From Candidatus Poribacteria bacterium (GTDB lineage: Bacteria > Poribacteria > WGA-4E > PCPOR2b), in assembly GCA_965116925.1 (NCBI GenBank), contig OZ220744.1, positions 5,856,001 to 5,920,000 on the forward strand: 64,000 nucleotides of DNA, written 5' to 3'. Shown one piece after another: positions 43,650-57,236 of this stretch. Under the pieces are notes generated by a model. It did not search any database. It had not been told where the DNA came from and saw nothing but the letters and a program-made list of their open reading frames with translations. Position 1 is the stretch's first letter; the number at the start of each line of letters is the position of its first letter. Made by a program: the position numbers and the translations under genes.

Positions 43650-44536
43650 GAACCTGTTTGAAAAAGAAAAATCCTACTCAAAAGTTAATGTTTATGTTAA
43701 ATCATTGGTGCAGTAAAATACTGACCTAATGAAAGGCATACACATGACCTCAACGAAGTATCCTACTGATTTGACCGATGCCCAGTGGAACAACCTGTTC
43801 CCCTATTTGCCAGAACCTTCCCCCATAGGTAGACCTCTCAAATGGGAGATGCGCTCCATTATCAACGCTATTTTTTATATAGTCAAATCAGGGTGTCAGT
43901 GGCGAATGCTACCCCATCAAATGCCACCGTGGCAAACGGTCTATTCCCACTTCAGAAAGTGGCAAGCCGATGGCACATGGGTTATGATTCATCAAGCACT
44001 TCACCAGCAAACTCGTTGTGATATTGGCAAAGCACCCTCACCGACAGTAGCTATCATTGACAGCCAATCGGTCAAGACGACTGAACTGGCAGACACGAGA
44101 GGGTTTGATGCACATAAGAAAGTCAAAGGTCGTAAACGCCATATAGTCACTGATACCATTGGCATTCCATTGGGAATCAAGGTCACTGATGCCAATGTCA
44201 GTGATAATCGAGTCGCAATAGAGTTGCTAAAGGAAGTCTTTGATTGGCAGATAACGATTCAGTTAGTTTGTGCCGATGCTGGCTATCGCGGAGAATTAGG
44301 CGACTGGCTTTATTTGACGCATCAGTGTCAATTGGACATTGCCCCATCTTTTAGACAATCGGGGTTTGTGGTTGTTCCGTTGCGTTGGATTGTGGAACGC
44401 ACCTTTTCTTGGTTCGGGCGGTTTCGTCGACTGACTTTGGACTATGAACGCTCTGCTGAGACTGCTGAAGCTATGGTATACATTGCTTCTATTTACTTGA
44501 TGCAAAACCGTATCAAATGACTTTTAAAACAGGCTC
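43650..44536 (+). mobile_element. IS5-family element (IS1031-like), 887 bp
   Basis: TIRs GAACCTGTTTGAAAAAG / CTTTTAAAACAGGCTC; TTA target duplication. Confidence 0.9.
43744..44520 (+). CDS. IS5-family DDE transposase
   Basis: YPTDLTDAQW, GCQWRMLP, IDSQSVK, KGRKRH, ADAGY, RWIVERTFSW. Confidence 0.94.
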   Translation: MTSTKYPTDLTDAQWNNLFPYLPEPSPIGRPLKWEMRSIINAIFYIVKSGCQWRMLPHQMPPWQTVYSHFRKWQADGTWVMIHQALHQQTRCDIGKAPSPTVAIIDSQSVKTTELADTRGFDAHKKVKGRKRHIVTDTIGIPLGIKVTDANVSDNRVAIELLKEVFDWQITIQLVCADAGYRGELGDWLYLTHQCQLDIAPSFRQSGFVVVPLRWIVERTFSWFGRFRRLTLDYERSAETAEAMVYIASIYLMQNRIK

Positions 44537-47606: not shown

Positions 47607-47981
47607 GGGCGTGTTGACATTTTGAAGCTGCTGATTCGGCAAACACTGTAATCATCAGGCAATCTGCCAAATGTAGCGCAAACTGTTAGTTTGCAGGCTG
47701 AGATCACAATCTAACAGATCGTGGTACAAAAGGAGATTGTAGGTCGAGATTCATATCTCGACAAAATACCCAGCGTGTCGCACCACAATCTTGGCTCAAT
47801 CACCTTGGAACATTGCACGCTGTTCTTAGGTATTGTCGATTTTGGAAAATCGACCTACAGCAGCAGTCCGAAATCGTTTCTGATGTGTAAGTAGAGGGTT
47901 GGGAAACCCACCCCCTACGAAGAATCATACGTCTGTGCGCTCTCCTTGATTGTCTAATTGCGATGACATGTCAACAGAACC
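47607..47981. mobile_element. MITE-C, non-coding, filled with REP-like doublets
   Basis: GGGCGTGTTGACAT / ATGTCAACAGAACC ends (11/14 match); TA on both flanks. Confidence 0.65.
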
Positions 47982-48019
47982 TAGATTTATACTTTTCTCT
48001 GATTCAGAAAGGAAATTCT

Positions 48020-49186
48020 ATGAAGATTAAAGAAATTCGCGTTGTAGAAATTGAGTTGAATCCGAACCCGACAACACCGCCACGGACACCGAGTCGAGCC
48101 AGTAAATATCCAATGAATCGACCCATTTCCCGTTACCCAACGTTCGACAAGAAAGTGGGGGATGCCTCCTTAGAATGGAAAAGACCCGCATGTATTGTGA
48201 CAGCGGAAGATGGTACTTGGGGGTTCGGTATTTCACTTCATGGCGGTCCAGTGACTCGAATCATCACGGATTACTTTGCTCCACGTCTCGTTGGCGAAAA
48301 CTGTATGGCGACAGAGAAACTGTGGGATATGATGGTGCGATCATCAACCGCCTTTGGTGCAACCGGTTTGATCAGCTATGCGATCAGCGCGGTCGATTGC
48401 GCCCTGTGGGATCTCAAAGGCAAGATTTTGAAGAGACCTGTTTACGAATTGTTAGGGGGACCGCAGAAGGAGAAAATTTTCTGCTACGCCTCCGGTTTTG
48501 ATCAGGAATGGTATATGGAACTTGGATTCAAAGCGACAAAATTATTCACACCTTACGGTCCGGTGCACGGGAAGGAAGGCTTAATCAAACTCGAAGAATT
48601 GGTGGCGAGCACGCGAGAAGTGATTGGCGATAAAGTTGAATTGATGTTGGATGCGTGGACCGGCTTTGACGTTGAACATACCGTGCGTGTCTGCGAGCTC
48701 ATGAAACCCTACGACTTGAAGTGGATGGAAGACTACATTTCCCCCGAAGATTTTGTAGGCTACGAAACCTTGCGTCAACGCATTCCTTGGCAAACACTCG
48801 CTACGGGAGAACATTGGTATCTGCCAACCGTTTTTGCCGCTGCTGCGGGTCGGCGGTTGGTCGACATCTTCCAGCCAGACGTATTGTGGTGTGGTGGTAT
48901 TACTGCTGCAGCCAAAATCTGTCACATCGCTGAGGCAAACGGTATCTCTGTGATTGCACACGGTGGAATGAATTATCCCTACGGTCAACATCTGTCGTTT
49001 GCCATGCCCGCTATCACATGGGGTGAACGGTCGGAGGGTATCTCTGCGCCCGGTGTGCCGCTTGAAGAGATGGTTAAGTTGCCCGGTACTCCAGTCATCA
49101 AAGATGGCTACCTCGTACCATCGGATGCCCCCGGTTTCGGTCTTGAAATTGATGAGGCTTGGATTGAGAGTGTAAGTACAGTGTGA
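48020..49186 (+). CDS. L-rhamnonate dehydratase-like enolase-superfamily enzyme (intron host)
   Basis: AISAVDCALWDLKGK, LMLDAW, WMED, ATGEH, QPD; unspliced stop TGA at 49184-49186, spliced stop TAG at 51537-51539. Confidence 0.88.
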   Translation: MKIKEIRVVEIELNPNPTTPPRTPSRASKYPMNRPISRYPTFDKKVGDASLEWKRPACIVTAEDGTWGFGISLHGGPVTRIITDYFAPRLVGENCMATEKLWDMMVRSSTAFGATGLISYAISAVDCALWDLKGKILKRPVYELLGGPQKEKIFCYASGFDQEWYMELGFKATKLFTPYGPVHGKEGLIKLEELVASTREVIGDKVELMLDAWTGFDVEHTVRVCELMKPYDLKWMEDYISPEDFVGYETLRQRIPWQTLATGEHWYLPTVFAAAAGRRLVDIFQPDVLWCGGITAAAKICHIAEANGISVIAHGGMNYPYGQHLSFAMPAITWGERSEGISAPGVPLEEMVKLPGTPVIKDGYLVPSDAPGFGLEIDEAWIESVSTV

Positions 49187-49312
49187 TTTTGCGTAGGGTT
49201 ATACATCGTCGGTAAGATAGGCGAATCTGAATCGTTAGATCGTAATTTCCCCCAAGATATTGTATACTGTAATGTTCCACGCTACAAAATACGATAGAAA
49301 GGGGAAATTACG

Positions 49313-49438
49313 ATGAGCACCATAAGCGTAAATGTTCCAGAGAAACTTTGGCGTGAGTATGAAGCGTATATATGTTTCAGTCGGTCAAGGGGTCAGTATT
49401 ATCCAACCTTTTGGTATTGGCTGAACTACATACGCTAA
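49313..49438 (+). CDS. 41-aa ORF within intron domain I, RHH-like N-terminus
   Basis: AAAGGGG RBS; MSTISVNVPEKLWREYEAY...; followed by a hairpin at 49451-49484. Confidence 0.45.
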   Translation: MSTISVNVPEKLWREYEAYICFSRSRGQYYPTFWYWLNYIR

Positions 49439-49946
49439 ACACTCAACCAGTATACACTTGGCAGAAATATATTGTCAAGTGTATGCCCAATTAAACCCGA
49501 CTCGGCGAACTTGCCGCCGTATACCTCACCCTAGCTGCGTCGCTGGAAACGGCGGGGTGGCAAACAAGGGAAAATGGCGCACGGACTGGAATGAATACAG
49601 ATACTCTAAATTGCCACGTCAGGTAAGCATGGTATGGTTAAAACGAAAGTTGAACTGCCGTAAGCTTCGTCAACTCTAACGGGTAAATCTGCGAGTGAAT
49701 GCCCTGAGAGGTGCATTCAGTAATCAGCCCGTAACCAAAATGGTAAGAGGTTAGAACGCTCACTTTATTCTTGAGCGTCATGATAAGGGTTTTTGTACTT
49801 AGCCTTTATTAGCAAGTCACAATTCCTTTGGGGTAAAGACAGAACCTAACCTATGCGTATATATATAGCGTGAGAGCGAAATAGTCCCTAAGTTGTCTCA
49901 TGCATCCAGCGCACACTGTCGAACCAGTATGCGCTGGTGTACGAAC

Positions 49947-50447
49947 CTATTCATAATAGAGGTTAGCCCGCAATTCTTTAATTGCAGGTTCAACAACGTG
50001 CTCGATGCGGTAGGGATTGTGTTTCCAAAGGGAACGCAATTCCCTTTCAACGTAATCAATCACATCAAGGGTCAAGGAACACGCTAATTCCTCAGCCCTT
50101 GCATAACCGTCCTTGAGAAGACAAGTATTCATTATCATCTCAAGGGTTGGGTGCGTATCATTACGCCCCACCTTTTTCGCAGAGTGGACTGTCACGACGT
50201 TCACCTCATAGAGGTTAGCTCGCAATTCTTTAATTGCAGGCTCAACAATCTCCTTGAGACGATCATCGTTGTGTTTCCACAAAGAGCACAACTTGCTCTC
50301 AAGGTCATCAACCCAGTGAGGGGTCATCGAATAGGCTAATTCTTCATCCCGTCGATAATCGTCCTTGAGAAGATAAGCATTCATTATCATCTCAAATGTT
50401 GGGTCACGCCCTACCTTTTTCGCAGAGTGCACTGTCACGACGTTCAT
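49947..50447 (-). CDS. Hypothetical protein of two ~80-aa repeats, antisense within intron domain II
   Basis: Duplicated unit NVVTVHSAKKVGR...EPAIKELRANLY with frame preserved; GGGAGG upstream of ATG. Confidence 0.65.
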   Translation of the reverse strand: MNVVTVHSAKKVGRDPTFEMIMNAYLLKDDYRRDEELAYSMTPHWVDDLESKLCSLWKHNDDRLKEIVEPAIKELRANLYEVNVVTVHSAKKVGRNDTHPTLEMIMNTCLLKDGYARAEELACSLTLDVIDYVERELRSLWKHNPYRIEHVVEPAIKELRANLYYE

Positions 50448-50633
50448 CTCCTCCCTTGTTGGATTAGGCGTGGTTGAACACGCCTTTTCCGCATAGGACG
50501 ATGAATCGATGTTTAGGTTTATGAGATGATAAGGGAGAGGAGGCAAGGTAGGATAGCAATACCTGAGCATTGCCAGAGTTAGGAAACTGAAAGCCTAACA
50601 AAAAACTTTACCAACATTGATGAAAAGCGGGGC

Positions 50634-50993
50634 TTGCCCTGTCAAACGACTGGATTCGGCGTGTTTTCATCTCAACGTATCACCGAGTTTGAAAATCACG
50701 TCCGAAGTATTCAGATGAAACTGGACAAAGCGGTTCCAAATGATGATAAAAACCTTGGTTCATATTAAGAAAGCGTGCAACAGCAATCGTAGGGGCGGGG
50801 TTTCCTCGCCCGCGCTTCACATTTTGCACTTTCTTTTTATATGAGCCAAAACCTTATCCGATGGTATGTGCATCTTTTGAGTAAGAAATCGAGAACCGTT
50901 AAAATCCTCGCAATTCACAACTAGCATTCCCGGAAAGAGATGGCAAACCTTATCGACAAAGATATTGACTATCTACGGTTGGTAAAGGTTTGA
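50634..50993 (+). pseudogene. Remnant of the intron-encoded RT/maturase (N-terminal RVT_N-like part), MITE-interrupted and internally deleted
   Basis: Removing the MITE gives FENHVRSIQMKLDKAVPNDDKNLIRWYVHLLSKKSRTVKILAIH*; located at the start of DIV; no YADD. Confidence 0.72.
50757..50847. mobile_element. MITE-B with REP, 8-bp target duplication
   Basis: GGTTCAT...ATGAGCC flanked by AAAACCTT on both sides. Confidence 0.88.
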
Positions 50994-51019
50994 TGAAGTC
51001 CGTCAAGTGAGATTAAGAC

Positions 51020-51382
51020 TCAATACCCGACTGTTTGCCAATAATAGATGATGCCATCAGGACGAACAAAAAACAATCTACGCTTTTCCACAGTGTATGT
51101 ACGCCCATGTTTATAAGTGGCGACAGGTATCAGTGGATGGTAGGATACAGACGAAGGAAATTGACCCACGACGCTGTTGTCCCAAATATAGATTGTCCCA
51201 CCCTTACCATCAGGGACGGACGATTGATAGACTCCCCATGATCTGATAACTTCAGAGATATGAGAACCTAACCAAGAATCCATAATCTCCCGATTGGAAG
51301 GGGGTAGAAGTTCACCTAATTTGGCACACCCAAGCATCAGGAAACAAAGGAACACAACGACAAATCTCATATTTCTCATCAC
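51020..51382 (-). CDS. Small lipoprotein, antisense within intron domain IV
   Basis: MRNMRFVVVFLCFLMLGC lipobox; WLGSHISEVIRSWG. Confidence 0.72.
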   Translation of the reverse strand: MMRNMRFVVVFLCFLMLGCAKLGELLPPSNREIMDSWLGSHISEVIRSWGVYQSSVPDGKGGTIYIWDNSVVGQFPSSVSYHPLIPVATYKHGRTYTVEKRRLFFVRPDGIIYYWQTVGY

Positions 51383-51588
51383 CTATTTTACTATTTTACG
51401 AATTATTTTATCGACGATAGAAAATTAGGAAGGTTTAACACATCATCATTTTTGATTCGGAAAGCCGTGTGCGGTGAAAGTCGCACGCACGGTTTGGAAG
51501 CGGGGAAAAGTCCGTGAGGACTCTACCTATGCTCACTAGAATATACAAGAAGGGTAGACATCGCTCGGCTATGAAGATGACTTTATCG

Positions 51589-52674
51589 CTATTGCTGCTC
51601 GTATTCAAATGGGAACGTCACCGGCTCACCATCGTTCGCCCACGATGTCGCCATCGCCACGTCAATTTCCCGGTCCTTACGACCGTTGTAAGCCCCATAT
51701 TCGGGCTCGGTGTCGTTGCGAACAGCGTTTGCGATACTCATCAGTTCTGACGCGACAGGAATTTCGCCATCACTGAGCGGGTAATTTTGCAACGGATTCT
51801 CCCACACCACTTCCGGCGTTGTATCCGCCACGAGTGCGGCGACGGTCTCAAACCCATTAACATCGTTGGTTTTGCGCGTGATTGTGATTTCGCGTTGCTC
51901 ATCGGTAGTGTCGCTCAGAATGACCGCTTCATCGCGGAAGCACATCCCGCGTTCAGCGTAGAACTTCGTGCCGTTGAAACCGCGAAGCGGCGAACCGTAA
52001 GACAAGCTGCTGAAATTGAATACCCCGACCGCGCCATCGGCAAATTCGATGATGCCGTGCTGCCATTCTTCTGAGTCGCGTGTCGGCTGACCTTGCCGCC
52101 AGATGTGTTCCTGCACGGTAAAACTCTTTCGGAACCCGAACACGCGCAGGGGTTCGTTATCAAATCCGACGTAACTGCGAATCAAGCCGATTCCGTGATA
52201 CCCGTGCCCGCGAAATTCGTTGTAGGCGACGTTGACTTTGCCGAATACCCCCGCCAGAATCATCTCGCGTTTAATCCGTTCCGAGGGCACACGATAATAG
52301 TTTTCGTTGACCTCAATCTTCGTTCCGTGCTGCTTTGCGGATTCGATCATTTTGTCCGACCAACCGAGGTCTGTGTCGATCGGCGTCTCGGTGCAGTAGC
52401 TTACCCCATGTTCAGAGCACAGCAGCCCCGGGATGTGATTGTTGCTCGGCGTAATTACGATGGAGCAGATATCTGGCTTCTCTTTTTCCAGCATCTCAGC
52501 GGTGTCTGTGTATGTGGCAATGTTATACTTTTCCCCCTGCTCTTTGACGGAATCTTCGTGTAGATCGCAAACGGCAACGAGTTCAAGGTCGTCCTTCAAC
52601 TTCGCAATGAGCGGCAGGTACGCGCCCGTTCCACGATTCCCTGTGCCGATATGTGCAATTTTGAGCTTGTCCAT
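51589..52674 (-). CDS. Gfo/Idh/MocA oxidoreductase
   Basis: IAHIGTGNRG, LVAVCD, ETP; GGAGG RBS. Confidence 0.88.
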   Translation of the reverse strand: MDKLKIAHIGTGNRGTGAYLPLIAKLKDDLELVAVCDLHEDSVKEQGEKYNIATYTDTAEMLEKEKPDICSIVITPSNNHIPGLLCSEHGVSYCTETPIDTDLGWSDKMIESAKQHGTKIEVNENYYRVPSERIKREMILAGVFGKVNVAYNEFRGHGYHGIGLIRSYVGFDNEPLRVFGFRKSFTVQEHIWRQGQPTRDSEEWQHGIIEFADGAVGVFNFSSLSYGSPLRGFNGTKFYAERGMCFRDEAVILSDTTDEQREITITRKTNDVNGFETVAALVADTTPEVVWENPLQNYPLSDGEIPVASELMSIANAVRNDTEPEYGAYNGRKDREIDVAMATSWANDGEPVTFPFEYEQQ

Positions 52675-56619: not shown

Positions 56620-57236
56620 ATGCAAGTTGCTAGTTGAATATCCATGGGATTTCCGTTAGAGTATTTGCGTTCTAAACAACACTCTTAAAACAGGAGAATT
56701 CCATGGACTTAGTAATCGTAGCATTTTATGCGCTTTGTGACGATCTCTTAATTCAACACCGATACCAAGGTGAAGCGTGGCGAGGACATATAGCTAGTAA
56801 CCGCAGATATTTCTATGGACTTAAACTGCATCTGATGGTCACTGAAGATGGCGTGCCGGTTGAGTTCTTCTTAACACCGAGCAGTTTTGGTGATGTTTTA
56901 GGGTTGCGGTGTTATCCGTTTGACTTACCTCAAGGGGCGGCCGTTTATGCAGATAGAGCCTACTGCAATTATGGGATTGAAGATGCGTTAGCTGAAGCCG
57001 GTATTACGCTCAAGCCGTTGCGAAAAAAGAACAGCAAACGCCAATATGACACGTGTAAGGTTTATCTCCACCATCACCGCAGGAAGCCTGTAGAGGAACA
57101 AATAGTCTCATCACCCAACGCCTACCCCGGTCAATTCACGCGGTCACTGCCGCTGGGTTTGAGATGAAAGTCGTTTTGTTTCTCATCGTTACTATGATTA
57201 CACGCATCATTACATAAAAACACTAGCAACTTGCGT
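56620..57236 (+). mobile_element. Internally deleted IS982-family element
   Basis: TIRs ATGCAAGTTGCTAGT / ACTAGCAACTTGCGT; flanks AATAATA / TATAATA. Confidence 0.8.
56703..57217 (+). pseudogene. IS982 transposase fragment
   Basis: FYALCDD joined directly to YFYGLKLH...VYADRAY; frameshifted C-terminus. Confidence 0.78.

Follow-up and report, generated by a model that had tools for sequence, protein, structure and literature searches.

A group IIB intron between the last sense codon and the stop codon of a Poribacteria gene, with an in-frame stop codon at its 5′ end

The intron and its host gene

We have analyzed a stretch of 64 000 nucleotides (nt) from the genome of a Candidatus Poribacteria bacterium (the window, in whose numbering positions are given unless a genome label precedes them). 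A group II intron within it separates the last sense codon of a gene from its TAG stop codon. The host gene encodes a catabolic enzyme of the enolase superfamily that has paralogues, i.e. it is not a housekeeping gene. The genome carrying the intron (G000; G### are genomes, L### fetched loci and X## public sequencing runs) is assembled as one contig and is 99% complete. The features of the locus are summarized in Table 1.

The exon ends GTA AGT ACA and the intron begins GTG TGA, so that unspliced mRNA is read as ...ESVSTV*. The intron closes CTATGCTCAC directly before the TAG, and spliced mRNA is read as ...ESVST*. Both boundaries had been placed in this way in a preliminary description of the locus, and the sequence and the list of open reading frames (ORFs) bear them out. 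That description had also suggested a search for intron-free alleles. The end of the gene is readable in 15 of 19 genomes of the same genus, and all 15 are intron-free and terminate in TAG, seven of them with ACA TAG; the orthologue at L009 reads AGTACA TAG AATATACAAG at this point. No usable gene end was obtained from G003, G004 and G019. In G015 the host orthologue ends in TAA, and another, truncated copy of the same intron family lies 13 nt beyond the stop. The intron-free orthologues define the intron as 49181–51536, lying between the last sense codon and the stop. This is confirmed as a real group IIB intron. The same allele is present without differences in contigs of two public runs, across the 5′ junction in X19, possibly the sample from which the genome comes, and from 30 nt before the junction in X20, and its GTGTG start is therefore not an assembly error.

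The preliminary description proposed that splicing is hardly needed for the host protein, and this is supported. The C-termini of the orthologues differ (ESVST, ESVSA, ESVSR, ESVSK, ESVSSL). No downstream cistron relies on the intron because the next gene is convergent. Finally, no match to PF00078 was found anywhere in the complete genome, i.e. it contains no reverse transcriptase (RT). The orthologous gene in G004 is broken in its middle by a different, RT-bearing group II intron (L099, G004:C1:1532569-1535783).

Table 1. Features of the intron locus, in window coordinates (D, domain; EBS and IBS, exon- and intron-binding site; REP, repetitive extragenic palindrome; aa, amino acids; RBS, ribosome-binding site)
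Feature	Position	Strand	Basis or remark
Host gene and 5′ exon, mandelate racemase / muconate lactonizing enzyme family	47963..49180	+	Pfam PF02746, PF13378; ORF list; start probably near 48020
IBS2, exon −14 to −9	49167..49172	+	Pairs with EBS2, one G-U
IBS1	49175..49180	+	6/6 Watson-Crick with EBS1
Group IIB intron, 2356 nt, non-autonomous	49181..51536	+	Rfam, orthologues, covariation, exon pairings
Intron 5′ end GTGTGA	49181..49186	+	T49184, not the family base, creates in-frame TGA 49184-86
DI basal stem, 5′ strand ATTTTGC	49186..49192	+	Partner GCGAAAT 49876-49882; covariation in 26 copies
Cargo 1, structured insert of ~273 nt in terminal loop of hairpin IA (arms 49208-12, 49497-501)	49217..49489	+	Fold z = −6.5
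41-aa ORF in cargo 1, RBS-like stretch paired inside hairpin	49313..49438	+	Homologues P0122, P0123 and in two other family introns
Palindromic hairpin with 11/12 sigma70-like promoter facing back into 41-aa ORF	49449..49486	-	Promoter scan
α loop of hairpin IB	49508..49514	+	Partner GCAAGT 49812-17; sequence; label presumed from general IIB anatomy
GAAA-capped IC1 hairpin (θ)	49541..49554	+	Fold
ε′ bulge AAAC	49562..49565	+	A49564 compensates U4; 69 other copies AAGC or AGGC
EBS2	49761..49766	+	Pairs with exon −14 to −9
EBS1	49794..49799	+	Pairs with IBS1
EBS3 (A)	49836	+	Partner T51537; family covariation
DII, enlarged by ~600 nt	49885..50536	+	Base 49885-89/50532-36; DII short in relatives
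Cargo 2, 166-aa ORF of two ~82-aa repeats behind GGGAGGAG site, antisense in DII	49947..50447	-	Repeat comparison
DIII	50542..50574	+	Fold
RT remnant, residues ~1-77 joined directly to ~556-581, with stops	50589..50987	+	tblastn with family RTs
REP-like genomic repeat within RT remnant	50754..50851		125 blastn matches in G000, 7 of at least 80 nt
Cargo 3, 120-aa small lipoprotein-like ORF, antisense in DIV	51020..51382	-	Homologues in 81/176 genomes, G000 included
DV, AGC triad intact	51462..51495	+	RF00029
DVI, branch A 51529, AC end	51500..51536	+	RF00029, fold
3′ exon, original TAG	51537..51539	+	Intron-free orthologues
Convergent Gfo/Idh/MocA oxidoreductase gene, next after host gene	51589..52674	-	ORF list, domain search

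The structure of the ribozyme and its pairing with the exons

The intron's 3′ end matches Rfam RF00029 (51460-51536) with 64.4 bits, against a gathering score of 40. Matches to RF00029 occur in 25 of 41 related genomes, with a maximum of 27 in one genome. These were fetched in part, mainly from G004, G005, G015, G020, G021 and G022, giving a family set of 67 5′ ends, 55 of them together with the 3′ end. Several traits of class IIB are present, i.e. GUGYG...AY ends, a catalytic DV, a bulged A in DVI, pairing of the exons with EBS1, EBS2 and EBS3, and an AARC-type ε′ bulge, a motif of the IC1 bulge typical of this class (PMC12350094).

The 8-nt complement of the exon end is unique in DI, and lies at 49794 in the loop of hairpin 49781-49811, where EBS1 had been proposed. 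The GAAA hairpin, the base of DII, the J2/3 junction GAGGA (50537-41) and the branch A at −8, bulged in the fold of DVI, are likewise where the preliminary description placed them. EBS2 and EBS3 add support that it did not contain. Across the family the EBS3 nucleotide and exon position +1 form a Watson-Crick pair in 52 of 58 cases, with two G-U pairs and four mismatches. Both intron ends are fixed by EBS1, EBS2, EBS3 and family covariation. The basal stem of DI had been drawn out of register, however. Of the seven pairs in 49187-93/49869-75 three are G-U. Among 26 distinct copies of the family (nine others were dropped as they did not match the search pattern) this pairing is 33% Watson-Crick and 71% paired, compared with 87% and 98% for 49186-92/49876-82, and we have therefore rejected it.

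The in-frame stop codon and its compensating change

The fourth nucleotide of the intron pairs with the AARC bulge of IC1, forming the ε pair. In the family 64 of the 67 5′ ends start GTGCG. GTGTG is found only in the copy at 49181-51536, and the remaining two exceptions, TTGCG and ATGCG, are unpaired remnants. The ε′ bulge could be called in 70 copies (eight further rows gave no call); GTGTG occurs together with AAAC in this one copy, and C4 together with AAGC or AGGC in the other 69. The double change of U4 and ε′ therefore confirms the 5′ boundary. The in-frame TGA, which the preliminary description treated as given, is indeed present, but it now looks like a derived change that is unique to this copy in the set examined. 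Unspliced read-through would give 38 additional residues with C at position 4, and gives one with T. Since the ε pair is compensated, the stop-making base was probably fixed while the ribozyme was still under selection. Comparison of the sequences thus indicates that the intron was still a functional ribozyme when it acquired the stop.

The account that we put forward is probable, if only just. A lineage of mobile group IIB introns in Poribacteria, with a chloroplast-like (CL)-type RT carrying an HNH domain, would have supplied the intron, which retrohomed to the junction of the last codon and the TAG by means of EBS1, EBS2 and EBS3. A change of C4 to U would then have given GUG UGA, adding one valine instead of 38 residues, and was likely favored as sparing the host protein. 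The change of G to A in ε′ would have kept the tertiary pair, and was likely favored since the intron still had to splice in order to spread. Later the RT would have been lost by one internal deletion, a REP would have landed in the stump, and cargo would have entered the loops of IA, DII and DIV. Today the intron would be in effect a structured 3′ untranslated region between two convergent genes, mostly unspliced; as no maturase is encoded in the genome, splicing is probably slight or confined to a protein-free reaction. U4 and its ε′ partner provide a two-base natural experiment in which selection on the host protein can be separated from selection on the ribozyme.

Other members of the family at or near stop codons can be compared. 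Two RT-bearing copies (L315 in G144 and L318 in G106) lie inside the stop codon of ssb, inserted as T|AA. Both start GAGCG and thereby rebuild a TGA, so both forms of the mRNA encode ...DDIPF* and the protein is unchanged by splicing. L314 and L325 lie one codon from the stop. These keep GTGCG, and read-through ends within three codons at the TAA or TGA that the family has at nt 9-11. L153, the closest copy as judged by the RT stump, is four codons before a host stop; it keeps GTGCG and would add 16 residues on read-through. A pattern for further ssb copies found only the two known ones, and of 10 loci checked the intron was present in L387 alone, which is the L318 copy. A phylum-wide pattern for further GTGTG copies gave matches at chance level, and none of 30 fetched loci fitted the hidden Markov model of the family; the pattern is weak, and the empty result therefore does not show absence.

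The account given above is favored by the distribution of these starts, as a stop-making 5′ end occurs in both stop-site classes and a non-consensus start in none of the 49 others for which a 5′ end is available (Fisher p = 0.0008, post hoc). It is also favored by the ribozyme core, no more diverged than in RT-bearing copies, and by the lack of an RT in G000 (see below). Several points weigh against it. The Fisher value rests on two events and hand-made classes. GUGUG is itself allowed by the broad GUGYG consensus (PMC4424553), so that U4 and its ε′ partner may be a neutral covariant that is older than the insertion. The proposed order of events is not documented by intermediates in the set, as GUGUG/AAAC was not found elsewhere and GUGCG was not found here. 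The closest copy is only ~75% alike in DI, and some of the differences may therefore be old. Lastly, one RNA contig joins across the site. It has nine exon differences, with unknown letters between the exons, and therefore looks like an intron-free relative.

Neutrality of the U4/ε′ pair leads to the main alternative, that of a filter without adaptation, which we regard as possible but rather doubt. Here GUGUG/AAAC would have preceded the insertion, being neutral in the mobile ancestor, and the insertion would have survived since the start of the intron happened to give a stop. Both states are allowed by GUGYG and AARC, and the retention of GTGCG in L314 and L325, with a stop within three codons, looks like the sorting of survivors. 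Yet GTGTG occurs nowhere else among the 67 5′ ends, and the ssb copies alter nt 2, which is outside the GUGYG consensus, again exactly making a stop.

For the RNA runs we had contigs only, from run shares of 0.05-0.10, from which the level of splicing is not readable. No splice junction with the exon sequence of this strain was present among these contigs. Run X2 has high depth on pieces of intron core that come from related introns. Its library contains abundant RNA of such introns (corresponding to window 49578-50522 and 51537-49626). In one contig the DII cargo is bypassed, and another passes from the end of the intron into DI again.

The loss of the reverse transcriptase and the state of the ribozyme

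DIV holds no intact RT or maturase ORF, and the intron is not an autonomous retroelement. A single deletion has removed the polymerase, thumb and HNH regions of the RT (residues ~78-555). The ribozyme core has 11 departures at 192 conserved columns, compared with 10, 14 and 21 in three RT-bearing copies; over the 18 copies compared the range is 0-21, and 11 exceeds their median. All 11 lie in DI and none in DIII, DV or the DVI part, and two of them are the compensated tertiary pair. The preliminary description argued that a dispensable splice site would relax selection on the RT and let cargo accumulate. No relaxation is seen in the ribozyme, whose departures are within the range of RT-bearing copies. 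Nor are RT loss and cargo consequences of the stop site, as family copies that are ORF-less or carry cargo are also found at the ends of insertion sequences (ISs), at REP-like repeats and elsewhere.

Could this be a long-dead relic placed by chance, in which the 5′ and ε′ changes are simply decay? The destroyed RT, the three large inserts, the absence of a maturase from the genome and the clear decay of the other copies in G000 would fit. But two of the 11 departures restore a tertiary pair, DV and DVI are intact and all the exon pairings are kept, and we consider such an origin very improbable.

Cargo carried by the intron

The cargo 1 insert is not present in the 5′ ends of relatives. Its 41-aa ORF belongs to a small-ORF module found only inside introns of this family, with 41-51 aa and the motif YxAxICFxRxxG..TF followed by a palindrome with a convergent sigma70-like promoter. 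The homologues were found by phmmer and missed by a word search. The same palindromic hairpin lies behind a homologous ORF in L103 and L116 (both G022), there past DII, and this cargo therefore appears to move between domains of the family introns. The promoter scan found five sites with 5.1 expected, and is therefore by itself no evidence. The layout, a small ORF with a convergent promoter, resembles that of a type I toxin-antitoxin system as judged from the sequence; the peptide has no evident hydrophobic membrane segment and no match in NCBIfam. A profile search with the ORF gave one further weak match in G000 (E = 2e-4). A match in G015 was set aside as it lies in an unrelated long ORF, and a hairpin in G039 was set aside as it is not in an intron.

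The two repeats of cargo 2 differ at 21, 8 and 22 first, second and third codon positions, i.e. fewest at the second. It has one homologue cluster, with no match in 175 other genomes and nothing usable from Pfam, NCBIfam or Atlas. Cargo 3 gave Atlas clusters at 0.93-0.94 and belongs to no Pfam family.

Target sites of the family

We sorted the insertion sites into 52 target classes by hand, using homologue-checked inspection in place of an automatic start/stop caller that was too strict. Seven classes are at gene starts supported by homologues or ORFs, seven at probable starts, two at stops, four near stops and five within genes. The rest comprise three repeat classes (with most of the copies), four at tRNA or tRNA-like genes, one promoter, two nested and 17 that remained unassigned. 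Nine of the 52 are strict start (−3 to +4) or stop sites, with starts dominating and stops rare. The expectations are 0.5% (all positions), 2.7% (intergenic) and 5.2% (intergenic, sense), giving p = 3e-12, 1e-5 and 1.3e-3 respectively. Related copies are not independent and the labels are hand-made, and the preference of the family for start and stop codons is therefore a tendency and not a rule.

An excess over all three expectations, with seven more probable starts, might suggest active targeting, whereby the lineage is guided to translation signals by the ribosome or another host factor, as has been speculated for the groEL clade discussed below, and the present site would have been selected for being a stop codon. 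Yet the family is also found within genes, in promoters and tRNA genes, and at REP-like repeats and IS ends, and the match of EBS1 to each exon suffices to explain the sites. Only two of the 52 classes are at stops, and enrichment can stem from survival at harmless, conserved sites. We therefore think targeting of this kind unlikely.

Comparison with known introns

Introns in stop codons are not themselves a new theme, having been known since 2003. A IIB1 clade at start and stop codons (Avi.groEL, EcKTE56.groEL; Ferat 2003 and Michel 2007 as cited in PMC12584367) carries a subdomain Ia, deletion of which leaves the target specificity unchanged, and the route by which group II introns reach these codons is stated there to be unknown (PMC12584367). 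This clade shares several properties with the present intron and its relatives, namely the IIB ribozyme, a CL-type RT with an endonuclease in intact relatives, relatives at start codons, stop-codon insertion leaving a stop in unspliced mRNA, and an insert of large size close to the 5′ end of DI. However, subdomain Ia, of 300-700 nt, occupies the 5′ branch of DI's basal internal loop, whereas that branch has 4-5 nt here and the 273-nt insert, which relatives lack, is in the loop of hairpin IA. Our intron lies before the stop codon, not between its second and third base, and its stop comes from a changed base with a compensated ε pair instead of the ordinary first G. Its host is not a housekeeping gene, unlike those of the groEL clade, although ssb is targeted by relatives.

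The RTs are also distinct. A match to the family RT is found in 35 of 176 genomes; intact RTs pass TIGR04416 and carry an HNH domain, and many of the family copies are ORF-less and 650-900 nt long. The RT of the copy at 49181-51536 is a stump, and the tests were made with intact relatives, together with the groEL-intron RTs of E. coli (located via a plasmid intron) and Nitrincola. In a quick tree the family RTs form one clade with support of 100, apart from the groEL-intron RTs at 38% identity, and the latter fall within the ordinary CL1 introns. A topology that unites the two groups was rejected with an approximately unbiased test p of 0.0009, using two groEL RTs and a group that was named once the first tree had been seen. 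The RT tree and the location of the insert led us to reject membership of the groEL start/stop clade. In the E. coli groEL intron locus (L303:4171-4395) a DUF2188 gene lies directly behind the RT and is probably intron cargo.

Among solved structures the family RT is best matched by that of the T.el4h-type IIB1 / CL1 introns (PDB 6ME0, E = 4e-102), which together with EcI5 share recognition by EBS1, EBS2 and EBS3. The E. coli CL1 RTs are ~38% identical to those of Poribacteria, which form their own clade, and no match to the family RT was obtained by blastn in E. coli genomes. The present intron resembles the ORF-less bacterial introns (Trichodesmium dnaN introns, C.te.I1) in having kept the ribozyme and lost the RT. 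ORF-less introns nearly always share the genome with a helper RT, with C.te.I1 the sole exception then known (PMC4424553). G000, in contrast, lacks any RT, and copies without an ORF are frequent in the family. We found no literature on group II introns in Poribacteria or in bacterial tRNA genes, in a search that left most subscription journals outside, and bioRxiv 2021.09.28.462093 has no mention of group II introns in Poribacteria.

That an unrelated lineage occupies start and stop codons although it lacks subdomain Ia is an argument for convergence, with survival at sites that are conserved but harmless as the driving force. A broader proposal is tentative, and we hold it to be doubtful as a whole. 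Poribacteria may have a second, independent lineage of boundary specialists without subdomain Ia, at start and stop codons, promoter +1 positions and single-copy tRNA genes. These introns would rewrite their own catalytic 5′ consensus after insertion (GUGUG with its compensated ε pair in the present intron, GAGCG in ssb) and so restore the stop of the host gene. RT-less members would persist as carriers of cargo, with the module of small ORF and antisense promoter moving between intron domains and perhaps acting as an addiction module.

Other family copies and insertion sites

RT-bearing introns of a sister sub-lineage interrupt tRNA genes. A tRNA-Arg(CCT) is split in the D arm in five genomes (L317 in G148, L319 in G172, L320 in G129, L323 in G107 and L327 in G175), and is the sole copy found in each of the five. 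A tRNA-Arg(ACG) is split in the D arm in L324 (G089), and a tRNA-Arg(TCG) behind the anticodon stem in L321 (G109); L326 (G171) lies in an unclear tRNA-like gene. ARAGORN calls the three Arg tRNAs only once the exons are joined (L317, L324 and L321 tested). Members of another sub-clade, of 2.9-3.9 kb (L328 and L331-L334, in G154, G119, G118, G090 and G114), are inserted 9-11 nt past the −10 box in a TTGACA...TATAAT promoter, close to where transcription probably begins.

ORF-less copies of 680-750 nt have multiplied on the terminal repeat of an IS and on two REP-like repeats, three repeated targets in all, in G004, G005, G015 and G002 (e.g. L067, L083, L162-L167; L074-L077; L072, L161). G005 has six of these and no match to the family RT. 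L084, L148 and L322 are nested within other family introns, in the manner of twintrons. Family copies lie at −1 of other genes in G015 (L080) and G006 (L048).

From a blastn match it had seemed that a paralogous gene might likewise have an intron at its end. This was rejected, as the paralogue ends normally and the DV/DVI remnant, 6.7 kb away, belongs to the start of another gene. Such a remnant of the family (L002, G000:C1:1003601-1003694, minus strand) stops 1 nt short of the ATG of another enolase-like gene and has an antisense heptad-repeat ORF upstream. A DI remnant (L003, G000:C1:364306-364634, minus strand) lies at an IS end and is interrupted by another IS copy. A further three DV remnants, all decayed, are at C1:3282280-3282358, 735461 and 753129. 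In the window itself the ORF list includes what we take to be an IS transposase-like ORF at 43729-44520 and a broken transposase fragment at 56703-57167.

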